A stretch of 58,697 nucleotides of DNA, counting the filler, from Barthelona sp. PAP020 (lineage: Eukaryota), in the NCBI GenBank assembly GCA_040182905.1. It is 6 parts of 6 records of this genome, joined end to end, with 100 filler letters (N's around TTAATTAATTAA, not from the genome) between each part and the next. Parts side by side here need not be neighbours in the genome. Positions count along the whole stretch, not along the records: positions 39,345 to 48,987 come from JARQWU010000421.1; 5 more parts are not named here. One strand, 5' to 3'. A program made the translations under genes and the position numbers. The number at the start of each line of letters is the position of its first letter. Positions within the stretch are counted from its first letter, which is position 1. Under the pieces are notes generated by a model. It saw only the letters and a list, made by a program, of their open reading frames with translations, did not search any database and was not told the DNA's origin. Shown piece after piece: positions 39,245-49,109 of this stretch.

Positions 39245-39344
39245 NNNNNNNNNNNNNNNNNNNNNNNNNNNNNNNNNNNNNNNNNNNNTTAATTAATTAA
39301 NNNNNNNNNNNNNNNNNNNNNNNNNNNNNNNNNNNNNNNNNNNN
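39245..39344. other. Artificial contig linker
   Basis: N44-TTAATTAATTAA-N44. Confidence 0.99.
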
Positions 39345-39360: not shown

Positions 39361-39437
39361 ACATACTCTTTTGTAATTTTTGGCCTATGTGTCAGCTCGT
39401 GCGAATTGCAAATGTGTATGGCTTTTGCGTGGGCTTT
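39361..39437. repeat. Hairpin-forming direct repeat, copy A (immediately downstream of the operon)
   Basis: 42/53 identity with 48844-48896 plus an identical TGCGTGGGCTTT tail; stems CATAC/GTATG and TTTGTAATT/AATTGCAAA. Confidence 0.85.
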
Positions 39438-41047
39438 TAAAATATATCTTCTTCTTTTTCCCGTTTTGTTAAATCTTTTCTTTCTTTTTCATCTTTTTCT
39501 ACATCAATTTTTTCAACAACTAAATCTGCACTTGCAGGTCTTGCTCTTGATGATGCCCATTCTCTAAGTCCGTCAATTTTCTTTTTCATCGTAATTGCTA
39601 AAGGAACTATTTGTTCACAAGCAGAAATTAAATGACTTAGTTTAACCTGAGGACTTTCATTATTCTCTATATATGCGTTAAACATTGATTCTTTAACAAC
39701 TTCTTCAATTTCTGCACCATTGAAATATTTAGATTTATCACTCAAGCTTTCAAAGTTGGTAATCCCAGTTTGACCATTTTTAGTAAGATGAATGTTAAAA
39801 ATATTTTCTCTCTCTTTTTTAGTTGGTAAGTCAATAAAGAAGATTTCATCGAAACGACCTTTTCTAAGTAATTCAGGTGGCAGATTGCTAATATTATTTG
39901 CTGTTGCAACAACAAATACCGGTTTAGTTTTTTCCTGCATCCATGTTAGAATTGTAGAAAATACTCTTGAATTTGTCCCTCCGTCTTTTTCACCACCACC
40001 AGAACTAAGACCTTTTTCAATTTCATCAATCCAAAGAACACAAGGGGCTATTGCTTCGGCTGTTTGTATTGCCATTCTGATATTGTTTTCACTGCTTCCG
40101 ACCTCTGCCTGAAAAACTTTTCCAATATCTAATTTGAGTAAAGGTTGATTCCATTCACTCGCAATAGATTTTGCAGTTAAACTTTTACCAGTACCTGGCA
40201 CCCCAAGTAATAACATTCCTTTTGGCTCTTTTAAACCAAAAGCTTTTGCTTTGCGTTCAAAGGCTTTACTACGAAGTTTTAACCATTTTTTTAAGTTGTC
40301 AAGACCTCCAACACTTGAATCTAAGTTCTCATTTGTTTGGTAGTAGTCAAGGATTCCACTTTTTCTGATTATTTGAGATTTTTCACTTGCAATTATTTTA
40401 ATTGCTTCTCGTTTATTCAAACCAACTTTCTCTTTTGCAAGCCGAAAAGCCAAATCAGCTTCTGTATCAGTAAGTCCTGCTGCTGCATCTAATAAAAGTT
40501 TTTTTAAGTCTTCATTTATTGAATTTTCATGACCTAAAACAACTTCTAAACGTTTTTCTAAATCTGCCTTATCGGGTAAAGGCATATTTATTACGGTAAC
40601 ATATTTCTCAAGTTCTATCGGGAGTTTAAAGAAAGGTGAAAGCAGCAATAAATGTTTATTTAAAACTTTGAAATACTGGGTTATTTTTCGAAGTTGAACG
40701 ATAAATTTTTCATCACTGAATTGTTTATGTGCATCCTCAATAATGAAAATTTCTTTTGTGTTTTCTTTTTCTTTATTGCCTTTCAGCAAAAACTCCAACA
40801 AGCTATCAGGGTTTTCTGCTTCTTCATGACTTTGATGTTTTTCTACTTTATCAAGTCCATTGCTTCCTGATTTTTGTTTATGGTTTTGCAAACCATCTAC
40901 TAAGTCCCAAGTATTAAACTCATAACCTTTACGATATGCAATACTTCTAACTTTTTGGATAATCCTTCCATATTCAGGTGATGCAAGATATATCAATGGA
41001 TAATTTGCATCTAACATATATTTTAAATCTTCAAAACTTTTTCCCAT
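39437..41047 (-). CDS. Ycf46/SpoVK-like AAA+ ATPase (bacterial)
   Basis: Degenerate N-terminal AAA module, VGGLDNLKKWL, Walker A GVPGTGKS, Walker B VLWIDEIEK, SRH ATANNISNLPPELLRKGRFDEIFF and C-terminal LREWASSRARPAS. Confidence 0.93.
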   Translation of the reverse strand: MGKSFEDLKYMLDANYPLIYLASPEYGRIIQKVRSIAYRKGYEFNTWDLVDGLQNHKQKSGSNGLDKVEKHQSHEEAENPDSLLEFLLKGNKEKENTKEIFIIEDAHKQFSDEKFIVQLRKITQYFKVLNKHLLLLSPFFKLPIELEKYVTVINMPLPDKADLEKRLEVVLGHENSINEDLKKLLLDAAAGLTDTEADLAFRLAKEKVGLNKREAIKIIASEKSQIIRKSGILDYYQTNENLDSSVGGLDNLKKWLKLRSKAFERKAKAFGLKEPKGMLLLGVPGTGKSLTAKSIASEWNQPLLKLDIGKVFQAEVGSSENNIRMAIQTAEAIAPCVLWIDEIEKGLSSGGGEKDGGTNSRVFSTILTWMQEKTKPVFVVATANNISNLPPELLRKGRFDEIFFIDLPTKKERENIFNIHLTKNGQTGITNFESLSDKSKYFNGAEIEEVVKESMFNAYIENNESPQVKLSHLISACEQIVPLAITMKKKIDGLREWASSRARPASADLVVEKIDVEKDEKERKDLTKREKEEDIF

Positions 41048-41052
41048 ATCAG

Positions 41053-41685
41053 TTAACTTTTTGCAATTATTTTATTGTCGGATGTTACTTCGATTTTATT
41101 TTTGTATTTTGATGGAACACTTCTTTTTATAATATCACTTTCATTCCTTTTGTTGCCTAATTTTTCTTCAAGTTTTCGCATTGCTTCATTTGCTAATTTG
41201 TGCATATCATCAGGTAAATAGTTTGTGTCAGATACTACTGTTCCGTCATTAAGGATAGTAAATTTGATTTCAGTGCGTTTTTCTTTCTCCTTATTGTTTT
41301 TCGAGTAACCAACCATATAGAACCTGTCAACTTCAGTCTGATTTGGCTCAAAATCGTAATCTTTTTTTAATGAAAAACCTACATTTTTAAATTCTGATAA
41401 TATTGAACTTCGTGCATATTCAACATTTAATTTGTAAAAAACTTCTTTTAACTCATCTACAAGCTGCACACCATTTTTAAGGTAGTAACTATTATAAATA
41501 ACCTGACTTCCTTTAACCTTCATAGCATATTCGCCATGAACTTCTTGTTTAGGAATTTTAGTTATTGCAACTTCATCTGCTGTAACTTTATATTCCCAAT
41601 TCAAGCGTTGAGCTGCTTTTATAAGCACTTCTTTTGAAAAGATCTGTGGGTTTTTTAAAAATTTTGATGTTTCAAAACAAGACAT
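41053..41685 (-). CDS. DUF1257 (Ycf35)-like + DUF2997-like fusion protein
   Basis: N-terminal MSCFET...LIKAAQRLNW...EYARSSILSEFKNVGF resembles DUF1257; C-terminal EIKFTILNDGTV...LEEKLG resembles DUF2997; adjacent to a Ycf46-like ATPase. Confidence 0.65.
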   Translation of the reverse strand: MSCFETSKFLKNPQIFSKEVLIKAAQRLNWEYKVTADEVAITKIPKQEVHGEYAMKVKGSQVIYNSYYLKNGVQLVDELKEVFYKLNVEYARSSILSEFKNVGFSLKKDYDFEPNQTEVDRFYMVGYSKNNKEKEKRTEIKFTILNDGTVVSDTNYLPDDMHKLANEAMRKLEEKLGNKRNESDIIKRSVPSKYKNKIEVTSDNKIIAKS

Positions 41686-41686
41686 A

Positions 41687-44068
41687 TTATTTTCTCCTTT
41701 TGTTTGTTCTGTTTTTATTAGTTGACTTAGCCTGCTTTTTCATTCCAAGAATGTTTTTTAGTTCAGTGATGTTTTTTGCAGGTATCTCAAGCGTTTTAGC
41801 TTTAATACTCATTCCTTTGTCATTTGTTAATATGACAGGATTTCGCTTCATGTACTGAAGTGCAACAGAAAATATGATATTATCTGGTGATTTCTTATTA
41901 AAATCACTTGGTAAATTATCTATTTTACTTGTGTTAAATCTGATGTTTTTATCTTGACGATGTTTGTGGATATTACGAATCGCATTTTGAGCTTTATCTT
42001 TTAAGTCTGGTTTTACTTTTAAGTTATCCAACTCATCAATTACTTTCCCTGAAAATATAATTGTTTGCTGTTGCCCGATTATTTCTATAATATTTGGTTC
42101 TTCAAGTAAGATATTTGTGTCAATAATAATAGATTTCCTTTGACTTGCAATTTCAATATCCTTTTTTGTTGTTTTTAGTTTAGCTTCCAATTCAACAAAA
42201 AGAGTAAATTCTTCATCAAGGCACTTTTCTTTTTCCTTCTCTATTTGAGCTTCAATTTTTTCAATAAAACCTATTGTTGGATTTGTATTTTCCGTAAATT
42301 TCTTACTTAACTTCTCAATATCAGAATTGATTTTATGCATTCTATTTTGTAGTATAGAATTAATAGCTTGCTGCTTTTGTCTTTCTAAATTCTGGAAATA
42401 GTTACTTGAATTTCCCAAGGTTTTAAACGGGAGTAATTTTGTGTCAATATTGTTTGTTTCTGCTATTTTATCCTTATCTGTTTCATCATCTGTATTCAAT
42501 TCATTAAAAAACACTTTGATATTTTTATCTACAATTGGAACATACTCTTTTGCAAAAGATACGCGATATTTATTCAAATACTTTTCTTCTAAATCAAACT
42601 CAGTTATATTCCGGCATAAGAAGTGCTTTTCAATTTGATGCAAATCTCCGTTAATGGAAATTGGAATATTAGACTTCTCTCTTTTAAATACATTCCAAGT
42701 TTTATTATTAGATTTGAACAAAACATTAAACTCAACAACTGAGTCCATCAAAAGAATATAGACATTCTGGAATTGTTCAACAGCCTTGTTTATTTCGTCA
42801 TAAAGTTGCTGCGATATCTCATTATTTTCTAGATAGATGAAAAAGTATTTTTCCTTAGAATTAATAGTTAAATTCTTTATGGCATCTATCTCTTTTTTAG
42901 AAACATCTTTCAGTAAGAACCAAATTTCTTGTTTAGAAAACTCAATGAATTTTGAAATGTTATTGAAAAATATTTCCGGTTCAATAAACAAAGAATCCTT
43001 GTAGTATTCATCCAAAATGGCAATAGCTTCTTCTGTACTTTTCTCCTCTAACGCCACATTTATCTTCTTCTGATAATTCGTTAAATTTTCTGCAATATTG
43101 TTTTTCTCAATATTATAATCTTGCAACTGATAGTTTGAATTAACAAAATCTATAAAGGTTTTGTGATTGATTCTTTTACAATCATATTCTGAGAAAAAAT
43201 CATTTGCGGATTTACTAGTTGGTTCAAATACAATTGAACTAAGTTTTCCATTCGTAATATCAAGTAGATATATTCTGTATAATATTGTTTTGAAATGGCT
43301 TACGTTGATACATTCAGAATCTTTAAAAGAACTTAATGTGTCAGGATTATATATCTGAGGAATTTGACTTTTTGCAAATGTTTTTAAGAATCCTTCATCC
43401 TCAAAGTCTATTTTGCAATCACCATTCTCTACTCTAACTCCTTTGATGAATTCAAAATTATCTTTTGCATTTAAATGCTGACTACTTGTATAGTCAAAGT
43501 ACAATTCAAAAGTTTTGTTTTGATGTGTCTTGAATTTTTTGCCTTTCGTAACATATTCTTTTCCAATTGCTGTAAGAGTGCAATATGAAAAATCAATATC
43601 CCCACCATCTATCATTTCAAATTCTTGCAGCGATTGCAGTGCTTCCTTTAGAATTTCATATTCGGCTAAATCTTTATATTTTTTCTGAGAAGGATTATCA
43701 ACTACGTTAAAACCCAAAATTTCCCCAATTTGCTCCAAACTTAGATGTTCTTCTATTTGTAATAATCCACAAATTGTTTTATCAAACAAAGTAAAGTCTA
43801 TTGCTTCAGTGCATGTTGCTGAATATTTTGCTTTGGAGAAGAACCATTCGATTTCTTCATAACCAAGATATATTTCTGTTAATTTTTTATCAGAATGTGA
43901 TGTGCTAAATAAAAAATTCTCTATTTCAGTTTTTATATCTATTGCAGGCTCTTTTGTTAGTGCGGCTTTTCTATCAGGTCTTGTGCGTAAGTTTATTAAA
44001 GAAAGGTCTATCTTTCCTAAAATTCCTGCATCAGGATTCTCATTATTTGAATTAGAACTATTTGTCAT
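41687..44068 (-). CDS. Large protein: wHTH-like N-terminus, coiled coil, C-terminal PIN (PhoH-N/Swt1/SMG6-like) RNase
   Basis: IIIDTNILL, VIDELDNLK, PDNIIFSVA and ILTNDKGMSIKA, with the acidic catalytic residues intact; LSLEQIGEILGF...LTAIGKEY is wHTH-like. Confidence 0.85.
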   Translation of the reverse strand: MTNSSNSNNENPDAGILGKIDLSLINLRTRPDRKAALTKEPAIDIKTEIENFLFSTSHSDKKLTEIYLGYEEIEWFFSKAKYSATCTEAIDFTLFDKTICGLLQIEEHLSLEQIGEILGFNVVDNPSQKKYKDLAEYEILKEALQSLQEFEMIDGGDIDFSYCTLTAIGKEYVTKGKKFKTHQNKTFELYFDYTSSQHLNAKDNFEFIKGVRVENGDCKIDFEDEGFLKTFAKSQIPQIYNPDTLSSFKDSECINVSHFKTILYRIYLLDITNGKLSSIVFEPTSKSANDFFSEYDCKRINHKTFIDFVNSNYQLQDYNIEKNNIAENLTNYQKKINVALEEKSTEEAIAILDEYYKDSLFIEPEIFFNNISKFIEFSKQEIWFLLKDVSKKEIDAIKNLTINSKEKYFFIYLENNEISQQLYDEINKAVEQFQNVYILLMDSVVEFNVLFKSNNKTWNVFKREKSNIPISINGDLHQIEKHFLCRNITEFDLEEKYLNKYRVSFAKEYVPIVDKNIKVFFNELNTDDETDKDKIAETNNIDTKLLPFKTLGNSSNYFQNLERQKQQAINSILQNRMHKINSDIEKLSKKFTENTNPTIGFIEKIEAQIEKEKEKCLDEEFTLFVELEAKLKTTKKDIEIASQRKSIIIDTNILLEEPNIIEIIGQQQTIIFSGKVIDELDNLKVKPDLKDKAQNAIRNIHKHRQDKNIRFNTSKIDNLPSDFNKKSPDNIIFSVALQYMKRNPVILTNDKGMSIKAKTLEIPAKNITELKNILGMKKQAKSTNKNRTNKRRK

Positions 44069-47000
44069 TGCTAAATTTCTTTTTCAATTCATTGTAATTG
44101 ATTATCATTCCTTCGTTTCCGATTATCTCTACGACATTTTTATAAATTCTATCCCCTGTATTGTTTTGATATTGTGAAAAGAAATTCTTATTACCTACAA
44201 CAATTAACAACCTTTTAGCGCGTGAAAGAGCAACATTTAAACGTTGAGGTGATTTTGCGAAACCAATATCTCTATTAGGTCGGATTTTACCATTATCAAT
44301 AACCTGATTACTCCTTACTGTTGAAACAATAATTATATTTCGTTCCATCCCTTGAAACTTATCTACAGTATTTAGTCTTACAGGAATATTTAGCTTGCTT
44401 CTTGAATATTTTGCAACTTTCCTTAGTAACCCAACTTGATGTCCATAAAAGCTAATTAATCCAATTTCTTCTTCTTCTTTTTTTTTGTTTTCATCTTTAA
44501 TACCATCCCAGTGTTCCATATATTCTGTAAAACCATTTGCTTTTTTCAATAGTTTCAAGACTAATGAAATAGCCTCAACTTCTGAAGTATTTGTTCTTGA
44601 TGTACCACTTTTTTTTTCAGGTTCATCAACATCAATCCATATTGTATGTATGTCAGGTTTAATAAAATCTTTTAAAAGAAAACCGTGATGCCTTGAAAAT
44701 GGATTATTTAAATTAGTGTCATCTGCATTCTCAATTATTGGTTTTCCTGGCTCCAATCCCCCTTCTTCAAGATAAAATTGCTTAATAACGTTATTGATTT
44801 TAGGGTGCATCCTGTATTGCTCATTGAATGATGATTTAATTGTAGGAGAAACATTTGGATGAGTGATAAGCCTTTCAAATTGAGAAGTTTCAACGAAATC
44901 CTTATCAATTTCTTCCGCCAATTCTTTAGCTTCTTTAGTTTCAAGAGTTTCTAACACTTCTTTAAAAGATTTATCGTGCAACATTGGAGGTAATTGGCGG
45001 TGGTCACCAATAATGATATTCTTTTTACCATAGCACATTGGTAATAATAATTCTGGTGGAGTTGCTTTACTTGCTTCGTCTGTTATAACTGTATCAAATT
45101 CAGTTGAGATTAGAAGAGATTCATTTTTTCTGTTTATCAATGAACCAAAACGCAAGTATATGTTAGCAAGCTTAGCCGCTAATTGTTCATTATATCCATT
45201 GTTTACGAAACGTTCAATTATTTTGTCTTCATCAATTTCACCTTTAATTGATTGAACAATTTTCTGATTTTTTGTAGCTAGTTTATGCCAAAAATATGTT
45301 TTACTTATATCTTCAACCTCATCTTTTTTTTCATTAAAAAGGTTTTGATAATCAGCTCCAAAATTTGGACTCCCTGCCGAACTACTTGTACTGCCAACAA
45401 CATTACAGTACTTAAAATATTTATCTTTAAAAAGAGTTTTCATTTTTTTTTGAGGTTGCGCCATTTCAAATGCCCAACCCCTCATTATGTCCCCATATTT
45501 GGGATTCGTTTGGTGAGAATTGTCAGCTATTCTTCGCATCCACAATTGAACAGCATTGTTGTTAAAATTTTCATATACTATTTCCTCTTCCGATTCTTCA
45601 TCTTCGTTAACTTCATTTTCATATAAATCATCAACTACAATATTCTCGTCAATCCATTTCATTATTCTTTCAAAAGAGTATTTTTTTCCTTCTTCCTCGA
45701 ATTTTGAAGCTCTACCGAAACGAATTGGTTTTACAATTGTGTGTTCTTTATTTAAAAGTTTTTCAAGAGCGTTATCTACAGCAAGATTAGTTTCAGATGT
45801 CAGCAATATTCTTTGTTGCTGGTTTGTTCTAATCATTTGCCAAATCATTTCAGCAATTACTGTTGTTTTTCCTGTTCCTGGAGGACCTTGTAATAAAGCT
45901 AAATCCGTGGCGTGTAATGCAGATAAGATGGCTCTGCGTTGTGAATTATTTAGAGTTAACAGTTCATGCCTTTTTAATTCGTTCCAATCTTCTGTGTCTT
46001 CTGATAAATTCCTAAAAACTTCTGTCGCTTTTGAACTATCAAAAACAAATTCTTTAAGTTTTTCATTTACAGGTTTGCTATCTAATCCTTCCTGTGGATT
46101 AATAACTTTATTCATGGCTTCATTAAGCCAAGTAATTTTTGCTTGGTCTCCTCGCAAGTTAGGAATAACTGTATTTACGTGAGGTTCTTTATCTATGAAT
46201 TTTAGAAAATTATCAGTTTGTTTTTTCTCATCTTTCCATTTGTAAGGAAGATTAAAAACTAGATTATTGTAATCTGAAATTTTAGCAGCAAGGTTTCCTA
46301 TTGGCAAAAACTTTTTTCTTCTGGTTTCTTGATTTTCTATTGCAACTCTAAATTCTACTCCAGCAAGATTTTTCAATTTATCCTCAAATGCTTCTTTTTG
46401 AGATTTTTTTGCTATTAAATTTATTTTAACCTTGAATTTGAAATCATCATCTAATGGTGATTTTACGATATTGAATTGATTTAATGATTTAATTTTATTA
46501 AATCGATATTCGAGTTCTTCCTTATTTTCAAATTCAAATGCAATATTTTTATACTCGCCAAATTCGACTTCAAATTCAAAGTCATGAAAATCTCGTTTTA
46601 AATTATTCCAAAATTCATCATCAAAGCCTGTAGTTATTTCTGAACCTAAAGTATATACTTCGCCAAGATTAAATTTTACGCTTTTTGCACCTTCATCAAA
46701 AAGTGTTTTTCTTTTTCTCAAAAGTCTATCTTTAAATTCTGATTTGGATTTTGAAACAAATGAGAAAGAGGAATCGGGTCTAAACCATTTATTAACTGTA
46801 TCTTTTACTGGTAGACCATCTTTGTTAATTACGGAAAACCTACCTATAAGCCCTTTCCTTTGAAGTTTAAATTTTTGAATTATTTCTTTAGGCAAAACTG
46901 CTATTTTATCACTACTGTTATAAAACTCAACAGTGTTTTCTTCTGTGCCGTTTCGGACAAAAAGATTCCAGTTTAATTTCTCTAATTCATTTTTAACTAT

Positions 47001-47813
47001 TTGAGAATTGACAAACGGGCGGATTTTTAAAATGCAGGCGATTTTTCTGTTCCTTTCAAAAGTGTCTGAAAAATCCTTACTTATTACTTTATCAATACCT
47101 CTGAAAATATCATTAAGTTTTAATAGAATTACATCTCCTTCAAATTTATCTTCTATTTCAAAGGGATTCTTTTTTATTGCTTCTTGCAATGCTTCATATT
47201 CTGGATTTTCTTTTTGCTTGAGTTTTGTCCTAAACTGCATTCTGATGGAGCTAACATCAATTGGTTGGTCGTATCCTGAAATTTCAATCGGCTGAGAATT
47301 CTTTTCCAAAATCAACTCTTGTGCTTCAATCCATTTTTCCCATATTTCTTGTTGATTTTCAATGTTTGATTTTGGAGAAATCTCTAGCTCACAAATTTTA
47401 CCATATAAGTTTTGCTGTTCTCTGCTTGGAAAAGGTGTATCATTGAAGTCAATTAAAGAAATGTTACAATCTTCCTGAATATAGTATTTACTAATTTCAA
47501 CGCTTTTGTATTCTTGAATTATTCTTTTTGATTTCTTGTTTATTACAGCTTTGTAATCATGAGTTTTTGGTAACCATTTTAATGTAAGGTCAATGTTCTT
47601 ATTTGTGTCTTCAATTGAAATTAACAATTTGTGCTCATCAGCATTCTTTTTACTGAATAAGCATTGATACTGATTCGAACTTAACCAATTTTTTAAATCA
47701 TCAAAAGTTCCATGATTTTGTTGATTTAACATTTGAATTGTTTTTTTGTCAAAACGAATAACAATGTCAATCACATCATCATTAAATATGTCTTCTTCGT
47801 TTCTATATGCCAT
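44058..47813 (-). CDS. UPF1/DNA2-like superfamily-1 helicase with ~550-aa unrecognised N-terminal region
   Basis: LNNSQRRA, QGPPGTGKTT, SETNLAVDN, ITDEASKA, GDHRQLPP, QYRMHP, TVDKFQGMER and RLNVALSRAK. Confidence 0.93.
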   Translation of the reverse strand: MAYRNEEDIFNDDVIDIVIRFDKKTIQMLNQQNHGTFDDLKNWLSSNQYQCLFSKKNADEHKLLISIEDTNKNIDLTLKWLPKTHDYKAVINKKSKRIIQEYKSVEISKYYIQEDCNISLIDFNDTPFPSREQQNLYGKICELEISPKSNIENQQEIWEKWIEAQELILEKNSQPIEISGYDQPIDVSSIRMQFRTKLKQKENPEYEALQEAIKKNPFEIEDKFEGDVILLKLNDIFRGIDKVISKDFSDTFERNRKIACILKIRPFVNSQIVKNELEKLNWNLFVRNGTEENTVEFYNSSDKIAVLPKEIIQKFKLQRKGLIGRFSVINKDGLPVKDTVNKWFRPDSSFSFVSKSKSEFKDRLLRKRKTLFDEGAKSVKFNLGEVYTLGSEITTGFDDEFWNNLKRDFHDFEFEVEFGEYKNIAFEFENKEELEYRFNKIKSLNQFNIVKSPLDDDFKFKVKINLIAKKSQKEAFEDKLKNLAGVEFRVAIENQETRRKKFLPIGNLAAKISDYNNLVFNLPYKWKDEKKQTDNFLKFIDKEPHVNTVIPNLRGDQAKITWLNEAMNKVINPQEGLDSKPVNEKLKEFVFDSSKATEVFRNLSEDTEDWNELKRHELLTLNNSQRRAILSALHATDLALLQGPPGTGKTTVIAEMIWQMIRTNQQQRILLTSETNLAVDNALEKLLNKEHTIVKPIRFGRASKFEEEGKKYSFERIMKWIDENIVVDDLYENEVNEDEESEEEIVYENFNNNAVQLWMRRIADNSHQTNPKYGDIMRGWAFEMAQPQKKMKTLFKDKYFKYCNVVGSTSSSAGSPNFGADYQNLFNEKKDEVEDISKTYFWHKLATKNQKIVQSIKGEIDEDKIIERFVNNGYNEQLAAKLANIYLRFGSLINRKNESLLISTEFDTVITDEASKATPPELLLPMCYGKKNIIIGDHRQLPPMLHDKSFKEVLETLETKEAKELAEEIDKDFVETSQFERLITHPNVSPTIKSSFNEQYRMHPKINNVIKQFYLEEGGLEPGKPIIENADDTNLNNPFSRHHGFLLKDFIKPDIHTIWIDVDEPEKKSGTSRTNTSEVEAISLVLKLLKKANGFTEYMEHWDGIKDENKKKEEEEIGLISFYGHQVGLLRKVAKYSRSKLNIPVRLNTVDKFQGMERNIIIVSTVRSNQVIDNGKIRPNRDIGFAKSPQRLNVALSRAKRLLIVVGNKNFFSQYQNNTGDRIYKNVVEIIGNEGMIINYNELKKKFSNDK

Positions 47814-48801
47814 TATCTATGTGATAGTTTAATAGTTTTATTGTTAACCCTTTGTAAATTTTACAATACCAATCAAGCAAATTAGTATTGTTTTCTTCTG
47901 TTGTAATCAAACATTGAGTCTGACAATAATCTTTAATAATACATTCGTTACATCTTTGTGAATCAGCTAAATTCTGTTTTCTTGAATTAAACTGCTCACT
48001 TATTAAATTCCAATTATCTTGAAAAGTCCCTAAACTTGAATTTGAATAAGGACACATACTAATTTTGCCGTCAGGCAAAATAGCTATTGTTTCTCCCTTT
48101 GTTGCAGGGCAAAATCCATTTCGGTTGTCTGAAATTAAGTTGAGAAATGGATAAAGCCATGTTCCTTCCACACTCAAACCTCTTTCATTTGCAAAAACGT
48201 ATAGATTGAAAACTCTATCAATTACACTTTCAGGTTTTAAGTTAATTCCATAATAATCGATATTTAATCGCCAAGTTTTTATTTTCAAATGTTCAAGTGT
48301 CATGATAAAGTCAGTTGAAATTTTCTGAATGTTTTCGTTTTTTAATGTTGTTGTTAATGAGTTGAGCAAAATATCGTTTTTATTTAATCGCTCAATACTA
48401 GAAACAATTTCATCATAACTCCCGTCACCTCTTACTTTATCATTTTCATATTTCAATCCATCAAGCGATGTATGAACCTGAACTTTATTTGCTTTTATAA
48501 ATTCAATGATTTCTGAATTTAGCAAAATCAAATTTGAATAGATACTATAGTCAATTTCTTTATTTGTTGCGTTCTGAGTTTGCTTTATGATTTTTGTTAA
48601 AGAATTCCATTTCAAAAATGGTTCTCCTCCAGTAAAATGGATTTGATATTTCTCGGAACTCTCATTTTGTATTATTCTATGAATTAATCTACTATGGTCA
48701 ATATCTTTTTCTTCTGAAATTTTTGTCCGAATACAATCTGTACAATCAAGATTACAATCATTATCTAATACAATATCAATTCTGTAAGGTTGATACCGCA
48801 C
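47803..48801 (-). CDS. Radical SAM protein with C-terminal SPASM domain
   Basis: CNLDCTDC (CxxxCxxC), FTGGEPFL, SLDG and SPASM cysteines CPA...PDGKISMCP...CNECIIKDYCQTQC...YC. Probable GTG start at 48801, because the listed extension to 48936 merely reads through the hairpin repeat. Confidence 0.88.
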   Translation of the reverse strand: MRYQPYRIDIVLDNDCNLDCTDCIRTKISEEKDIDHSRLIHRIIQNESSEKYQIHFTGGEPFLKWNSLTKIIKQTQNATNKEIDYSIYSNLILLNSEIIEFIKANKVQVHTSLDGLKYENDKVRGDGSYDEIVSSIERLNKNDILLNSLTTTLKNENIQKISTDFIMTLEHLKIKTWRLNIDYYGINLKPESVIDRVFNLYVFANERGLSVEGTWLYPFLNLISDNRNGFCPATKGETIAILPDGKISMCPYSNSSLGTFQDNWNLISEQFNSRKQNLADSQRCNECIIKDYCQTQCLITTEENNTNLLDWYCKIYKGLTIKLLNYHIDNGI

Positions 48802-48839
48802 TAATTTTGGGCAAGTCTCTGGTTGTGGGTCGGCTAAAA

Positions 48840-48914
48840 TTGCACTCTTTTGCAAATTTTGGTTTGAGGGTTGGCTCGTGGGATTTGCAAATGTGTGCAA
48901 TGTGCGTGGGCTTT
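48840..48914. repeat. Hairpin-forming direct repeat, copy B (upstream of the operon)
   Basis: Perfect stems TTGCAC/GTGCAA and TTTGCAAAT/ATTTGCAAA; homologous to 39361-39437. Confidence 0.85.
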
Positions 48915-48987
48915 CTATGTCATTATCTCTACTCAATTTTAGTTATTATTTCAATGTTCGTGGTCTTTTTAGCATTACCCCCAACTT

Positions 48988-49087
48988 NNNNNNNNNNNNN
49001 NNNNNNNNNNNNNNNNNNNNNNNNNNNNNNNTTAATTAATTAANNNNNNNNNNNNNNNNNNNNNNNNNNNNNNNNNNNNNNNNNNNN
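48988..49087. other. Artificial contig linker
   Basis: N44-TTAATTAATTAA-N44. Confidence 0.99.
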
Positions 49088-49109
49088 TTTAATTTCTTTT
49101 TAATACCCA

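Follow-up and report, generated by a model that had tools for sequence, protein, structure and literature searches.

A 58,697-nt stretch of DNA assigned to Barthelona sp. PAP020 (GCA_040182905.1), referred to below as the window, carries on its minus strand, between positions 41687 and 47813, two overlapping genes coding for a UPF1-type superfamily 1 (SF1) helicase and for a 793 amino acid (aa) protein ending in a PIN domain. The question raised by this locus, already posed by the initial annotation, is whether the pair resembles the UPF1-SMG6 couple of eukaryotic nonsense-mediated mRNA decay (NMD) or is a relative of the Mokosh defence systems with a swapped effector. We found that it belongs to a real and conserved offshoot of Mokosh type I, with a documented change from a phospholipase D (PLD) to a PIN nuclease and a recurrent borrowing of IF2 segments. 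The pair, first taken for a two-gene unit, is half of a conserved cassette of four genes coding for the helicase, the PIN protein (gene 2), a 210-aa protein (gene 3) and a Ycf46-type AAA+ ATPase (gene 4).

A genome scan with the gene 2 alignment gave 74 loci, 15 of which contain a full family protein, all annotated as Bacteroidota. The four genes are found in this order in 13 of these 15 loci, the exceptions being a locus cut at a contig edge (L021) and one with the helicase and gene 2 only (L022). In the reverse scan with gene 3, which covered 80 metagenome loci, near-duplicates included, gene 2 was found in 66/66 loci that leave 600 bp for it, lying upstream of gene 3 in 65 while the remaining locus holds a fragment of the sister-clade version; the helicase is present in all the loci with 3300 bp of room (53/53), and the AAA+ gene in all those long enough to hold it (63/63), being adjacent to gene 3 in 61.

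The helicase gene (44058..47813, minus strand, 1251 aa) and gene 2 (41687..44068, minus strand) overlap by 11 bp, and the identity of both products as first described was confirmed by open reading frame (ORF) coordinates, Pfam and profile searches. The UPF1/IGHMBP2-like helicase matched Pfam AAA_11 (E 4e-43) and AAA_12 (E 1e-39), keeps the SF1 motifs (Walker A at residue 643, DEASK at residue 912), and its family profile gave IGHMBP2 and Upf1 as top PDB matches (E about 1e-40 to 1e-38). The comparison to Mokosh profiles that had been proposed succeeded for this protein, the PADLOC MkoA profile matching at E 1e-99 over residues 544-1232 only, and hhalign with MkoA gave E 4e-50 with an alignment beginning at residue 560. 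The MkoA-like core starts around residue 560, and the preceding N-terminal 550 aa have no assigned fold; Atlas leads for the first 560 residues, all scoring below 0.9, point to 1B barrel domains. The absence of a recognisable kinase domain also held, since neither Pfam nor profile comparison with MkoA detected one at the sequence level.

Gene 2 codes, in order, for an IF2-like motif, a winged helix, a motif-less PLD fold, a helical stalk, the PIN domain and a basic tail, and its layout was established from Pfam, alignments and a confident structure model (pLDDT 84, with a disordered head of low pLDDT over residues 1-41). The winged helix (residues 92-176; 43541..43795, minus strand) matches MarR/OhrR in the model with Z 10-11 and lies within the most conserved part of the protein, residues 87-187 holding 16 of the 35 invariant columns. 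The PLD-like fold (residues 326-510; 42539..43093, minus strand), seen in the alignment and in the model, contains neither HxK nor GSxN and matches the PLD of SauUSI with Z 10.7. The PIN_4 domain (residues 641-776; 41741..42148, minus strand) was detected by Pfam over residues 647-766 (E 7e-20) and by the model. It was rightly called intact: of its four acidic residues, D650, E679 and D729 are each kept in 46/46 proteins of the PIN-bearing clade and D750 in 45/46. The corresponding active site of SMG6 is D1251/E1282/D1353/D1392 (PMC5499597). The best structural match of the PIN model is the human SMG6 PIN (Z 17.0, rmsd (root-mean-square deviation) 2.4, 124 residues), with E 0.8 by sequence. 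Because PIN_4 comprises, besides SMG6, Swt1 and bacterial PhoH2 (PMC5499597), this likeness holds only at the family level.

We then compared 66 non-identical gene 2 proteins of at least 670 aa, from which fragments, split copies and ORF-caller misses were excluded. A PIN domain without HxK is present in 46 of them and HxK plus GSxN without PIN in the other 20, none (0/66) having both or neither. The 20 proteins of the second group form a sister clade with the same gene order as the window's clade, in which the HxK-bearing PLD is kept and no PIN is found. Profile-profile alignment of the two groups (P = 100%, E 5e-46, 542 columns) supported the earlier suspicion that the middle of the window protein is a decayed PLD. 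The HxK group matches PADLOC MkoB in 4/4 tested proteins (E 1e-9 to 8e-7), and its PLD aligns with three MkoB encoded beside Bacteroidota kinase-helicase genes (E 3e-11). In a helicase tree built from 19 of the 25 aligned rows plus two MkoA and rooted on MkoA, the PLD and PIN clades are sisters with a support of 99 each. The direction of the change from PLD to PIN rests on this helicase tree because the base of a quick gene 2 tree is unresolved. As MkoB keeps the PLD motif, the most parsimonious history comprises a single loss of the PLD site and a single gain of PIN. The initial idea of a Mokosh relative with a swapped effector is thereby upheld in the form of two sister clades, one of which matches MkoB; the cassette is an offshoot of Mokosh type I, neither a member of it nor an NMD orthologue.

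The nearest sequence relatives of the gene 2 PIN are bacterial, namely helicase-PIN fusions of Bacteroidota with 43-50% identity, and this similarity makes the fusions a plausible donor pool for the domain. These are single-gene SF1 helicase-PIN fusions of about 740-800 aa (P0106-P0120; L011:236-2629, L018:8195-10414, L019:6571-8787). Close PIN domains were also seen on other scaffolds: a 1334-aa helicase fusion (L016:6401-10405), a protein followed by an Hsp70-like sequence in a Desulfobacterales metagenome-assembled genome (MAG; L020:415-2403), and a 762-aa protein of no assigned family (L014:8120-10408).

The disordered head of the window protein, about 45 residues long, has no counterpart in most orthologues. 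Its residues 16-34 (43967..44023, minus strand) match a repeat found in the linker of Bacteroidota IF2. An IF2-only profile of this linker motif recognised it at E 6e-4 and, among 1013 proteins, matched PIN-bearing proteins only. With a profile for which 34 IF2 linker repeats were the sole source, the motif scored 22.0 bits compared to 12.6 for the best shuffle (2000 shuffles, 1897 scored); in 3941 six-frame ORFs of non-IF2 loci, the matches of this profile were limited to two small IF2-like proteins and three of the helicase-PIN fusions. The motif could also have arrived via the helicase-PIN fusions; the residues downstream of it fit IF2 better. A further IF2-only profile, covering the IF2 N-domain, matched gene 2 proteins only among the 1013 proteins at E <1e-4: all 20 proteins of the PLD clade and three of the PIN clade (L009, L088, L104). 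Pfam IF2_N detected none of the gene 2 extensions. The L009 piece shares 43/60 residues (72%) and 347/452 bases with its own host's IF2, and is not an assembly chimera because it is too diverged from it; the best match of the L088 piece is a Segetibacter IF2 (31/49) and that of the L104 piece another IF2 (27/56). Every PIN-clade piece has its closest relative in an IF2, a different one each time, and not among the other copies, and the carriers are scattered on the gene 2 tree, the close relatives L089, L102, L083 and L001 being without such pieces. These two observations suggest about five separate captures at the same position of gene 2. As a control, the IF2 N-domain was sought in 201 Bacteroidota genomes, of which 160 gave a match and only 4/201 have a second copy. 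One of these four second copies lies in an RNase unrelated to gene 2 (L222:4938-7526), with an NYN/Zc3h12a-like nuclease, cold-shock domains, an internal IF2 N-domain and leucine-rich repeats, its Pfam matches standing just below the cut-off. Standalone proteins of 225-275 aa with an IF2 N-domain, the linker motif and a basic tail, and no GTPase, were also seen (L226:988-1671, L227:1492-2322). In E. coli and Geobacillus, IF2 is held on the ribosome by its N-terminal part (PMC4611024), a finding that covers neither Bacteroidota IF2 nor the linker motif. Other RNA-related additions occur in the PIN clade, with LOTUS in 16/46 proteins, partly via a custom profile seeded on four members, and S1 in 1/46. 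IF2 extensions are the subject of PMC12919033 and LOTUS that of PMC7498356.

Downstream of gene 2, gene 3 (41053..41685, minus strand, 210 aa) is probably a diverged fusion of DUF1257 and DUF2997, as judged from pairwise scores and Atlas. Its pairwise score with DUF1257 is 26.1 (E 0.0024), the best of 30 shuffles reaching 15.8, and that with DUF2997 is not significant and falls within the shuffles; the Atlas leads are a DUF2997 cluster (0.89) and a DUF1257 cluster (0.82). Pfam gave no match, no DUF cluster was identified among 79 unannotated profile matches, and Foldseek on the model gave nothing at E 0.001, with weak TBP/KA1-like rows only. Gene 4 (39437..41047, minus strand, 536 aa), assigned by Pfam and identity comparison, is 41-50% identical over 365-493 residues to the AAA+ protein encoded upstream of DUF1257 in 9/9 Planctomycetota loci, most of which also show, by eye, a small DUF2997-like ORF. 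These nine were found in a set of 121 genomes, DUF1257 searches of sets of 5 and of 251 genomes finding none. Gene 3 is likely the partner of this ATPase.

We favour, as probable but far from certain, the reading that the cassette is an anti-phage system derived from Mokosh type I, in which the helicase would feed RNA to the PIN nuclease and the IF2 pieces likely place it near ribosomes. The data show how the genes are ordered and conserved, how their domains are arranged, that the sister clades have either PLD or PIN, how the proteins relate to MkoA and MkoB, and that IF2, LOTUS and S1 add-ons occur; the complex, substrate, role of genes 3 and 4 and outcome described next are inferred. The helicase and gene 2 would form a complex via the conserved winged-helix scaffold, and the helicase would thread RNA, at best guess mRNA on ribosomes, to the PIN domain, predicted to cut single-stranded RNA; the PLD fold deprived of its catalytic motif would stay as structure. 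Gene 3, as an adaptor, and gene 4, as a Cdc48-like ATPase, might dismantle, license or recycle the complex and replace the kinase of Mokosh type I, and the IF2, LOTUS and S1 add-ons would raise its concentration on ribosomes or RNA. Upon infection, phage transcripts would be destroyed or translation shut off. Complex formation is common among nuclease-NTPase defence systems in one study, where Mokosh I could not be purified (10.1101/2025.07.10.664194). An RNA direction is preferred because LOTUS and S1 domains are found on PIN-clade proteins and because another Bacteroidota family has an SF1 helicase and a close PIN in one chain. A defence directed at DNA or RNA/DNA hybrids, with the winged helix binding DNA and the IF2 pieces being neutral passengers or generic basic, disordered tethers, is improbable: the SMG6-type PIN cleaves single-stranded RNA, not DNA (PMC5499597), and the same positions have acquired add-ons on several occasions, each time domains associated with RNA or ribosomes. 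A bolder version of the favoured reading is possible, if doubtful. It sees a bacterial ribosome-tethered, mRNA-destroying machine built on the Mokosh scaffold out of the parts that eukaryotic surveillance also uses (UPF1-like helicase, SMG6-like PIN, Cdc48-like ATPase), which would repeatedly re-capture the host IF2 anchor to dock on host ribosomes and cut phage mRNA during translation, or to sense a phage protein attacking IF2.

The genomic neighbourhood was examined with PADLOC at a cut-off of E 1e-25. Among the neighbours of the cassette 20/102 proteins match, in 13/37 loci, and they include restriction-modification, Argonaute, retron, Lamassu, Druantia-like and SoFic genes, with L013 adjoining McrBC. 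Control loci, which are weak PIN-only loci presumed to be of the PhoH2 type, gave 6/95 matching neighbours in 6/34 loci, all read as generic domain matches (Fisher p 0.006 by protein). The neighbours differ from locus to locus. A prokaryotic Argonaute stands directly upstream of the cassette in both clades (L113:1378-2829, L118:826-2877, L160:1068-3119). A repeat of about 75 bp flanks the cassette here, with an upstream copy at 48844..48914 and a downstream copy at 39365..39437 (neither given a strand, 77% identical), as well as at about 20 other loci, and it also lies beside two true Mokosh loci (L105, L182 and L183 being among the loci named). The arrangement is possibly integron-like. In run X11, read depth spikes at both contig ends, and the sequence past 48985 differs between runs and looks like a cassette array; an X11 contig joining both flanking repeats, which may be an empty site or mere repeat similarity, was not used. 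One IMG/VR contig (L228) carries the full cassette beside integrases and a topoisomerase-like gene; its reading as phage cargo was rejected, the contig resembling an integrative element and not a phage.

The PADLOC-positive and variable neighbours and the copy on an integrative-element-like contig are among the grounds for reading the cassette as defence. They also bear on the idea that the cassette is a convergent NMD counterpart, linked to ribosomes, that serves RNA quality control or stress responses on cellular mRNA with no phage trigger. In this scheme helicase and PIN would degrade the mRNA of stalled ribosomes, and the AAA+ pair would clear the complex. The UPF1-like helicase, SMG6-like PIN, Cdc48-like AAA+ and IF2 anchors would all suit such a machine, as would the example of PhoH2, in which PIN_4 is fused to a helicase, presumably for a response to nutrient stress (PMC5499597). 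We nevertheless regard it as unlikely, since a housekeeping pathway is expected at a fixed locus, whereas these neighbours vary and are often restriction, Argonaute or retron genes, the locus has flanking repeats and a mobile copy, and the ancestry of the cassette leads back to a defence system that has been tested. An addiction or anti-plasmid cassette, whose PIN toxin would be restrained by its partners and which would spread by self-maintenance, would agree with its position between repeats and on a mobile element and with the bacterial toxins among PIN_4 members. It is very unlikely given four large co-conserved genes with two ATP motors, a sister clade that works without PIN, and no small antitoxin-like regulator seen.

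Several observations weigh against the anti-phage reading or the steps leading to it. Counted by locus, the excess of PADLOC-positive neighbours is not significant (Fisher p 0.11), some cassette loci have neighbours in common, and the control loci belong to other phyla. The locus L022, without genes 3 and 4, is the sole two-gene case. The comparison to Mokosh profiles, successful for the helicase, failed for gene 2 of the window, which does not match PADLOC MkoB, and the PIN clade compared with the three true MkoB by profile is not significant (E 0.02); because the window protein alone does not reach MkoB, its link to MkoB runs through the sister clade. The PLD/PIN split counts as one evolutionary event, not 66. 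The window motif has 19 residues and is degenerate (9.4 bits) in the sole relative sharing the extension. As 25/46 PIN-clade proteins carry no IF2, LOTUS or S1 add-on, these additions are optional. Finally, since in one screen the only defence by Mokosh II was against a phage with single-stranded DNA (10.1101/2025.07.10.664194), the PLD ancestor may act on DNA.

The window itself consists of six contigs, each 9.6-9.8 kb long, which are separated by an artificial linker (N44, 12-base spacer, N44), one copy of which, at 39245..39344 (no strand), marks a contig end, with a second at 48988-49087. The cassette contig (39345-48987, 9643 bp) contains five closely packed minus-strand genes. The fifth, a radical SAM/SPASM-type accessory gene overlapping the helicase start (47803..48936, minus strand, probable start GTG near 48801), was rejected as a core part, being found with the cassette in L001 and L081 only, in one sub-clade. 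The five other contigs (1-39244 and 49088-58697) are gene-dense and AT-rich, with eukaryote-like genes coding for BCCIP, WD40, kinase-ankyrin pairs, a DEAD-box helicase with an SPB4-like extension and a nitroreductase; the BCCIP, WD40, kinase-ankyrin and DEAD-box genes read as eukaryotic by their families. A transfer of the cassette into the eukaryote represented by these five contigs would agree with the similar GC content (30% compared to 29-32% for the other contigs), but is hardly credible: the cassette lies on its own contig between artificial linkers, this contig holds bacterial-type operon genes only, a 9810-bp contig of run X2 spans nearly all of it (242 differences over 39817-48985), and a protein 97% identical to gene 2 (P0002) is on a record from an Ignavibacteriae MAG. 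On the simplest view this is a bacterial contig that was binned with the protist, and it looks like contamination of the bin. The cassette is also present in the RNA run X16, as contigs only, which is no proof of expression.

One scaffold with two alternative nucleases constitutes a natural experiment bearing on the substrate of Mokosh, the replacement being a known type of RNase. That an immune nuclease has repeatedly taken up a domain of a host translation factor, a case of which literature searches returned no earlier account, makes possible a direct test of ribosome-located defence, and the orphan Ycf46-type ATPase module is given a testable job. The same searches, for which subscription journals and supplements were outside the scope, found no description of the cassette or of IF2 capture (Mokosh member tables might include the loci), and no paper for a link to 'TOTE' conflict systems. 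Cury et al. linked Mokosh to piRNA factors, in a text that does not contain the term 'PIN' (10.1101/2022.12.12.520048).

Mokosh type I is defined by a kinase and an active PLD and type II by a fusion (Millman et al., 10.1101/2022.05.11.491447). As in type I, a COG1112/UPF1-like RNA helicase gene is present in the window cassette and is followed by a winged-helix/PLD gene, the helicase core aligns to MkoA, and gene 2 of the sister clade matches MkoB. Unlike type I, the window helicase has no detected serine/threonine kinase domain, the PLD HxK is absent in 46/46 PIN-clade proteins (present in 20/20 of the sister clade) and a PIN is added, four genes are co-conserved instead of two, and a helical stalk and IF2, LOTUS or S1 add-ons are found. 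It differs from type II in that the helicase and gene 2 are separate overlapping ORFs, and separate in relatives too. PhoH2 and the Bacteroidota helicase-PIN fusions share with the cassette a PIN_4 working with a helicase, and the fusions have the same IF2-like motif just before PIN; PhoH2 uses a PhoH ATPase, and the fusions are single genes that lack the MkoB scaffold and whose helicase is shorter and of another kind.

The last two genes resemble what we take to be the Ycf46-type AAA+/DUF1257 (Ycf35)/DUF2997 trio, by the identity of the AAA+ protein and, tentatively, by gene 3, which may be related to DUF1257 and, on weaker signs, to DUF2997. They differ from it by having one 210-aa gene, below Pfam detection, before the ATPase, tied to a helicase-nuclease pair. 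With the UPF1-SMG6 pair of NMD, the cassette shares the helicase family and a PIN_4 with four acidic residues whose best structural match is SMG6. The Pfam scan of the five genes found no UPF1 zinc (CH) domain, EST1-type domain or UPF2/UPF3, the pairing arose within a bacterial Mokosh lineage and the nearest PIN relatives are bacterial. The IF2 pieces hint at ribosomes without pointing to a decay trigger such as translation termination. Given these points, the inclusion of PhoH2 in PIN_4 and the sequence score with SMG6, the proposed NMD-like pair is retained only as an analogy. The resemblance to eukaryotic NMD is one of convergence, not of shown orthology, and bacteria can bring together a UPF1-like helicase and an SMG6-like PIN on their own.

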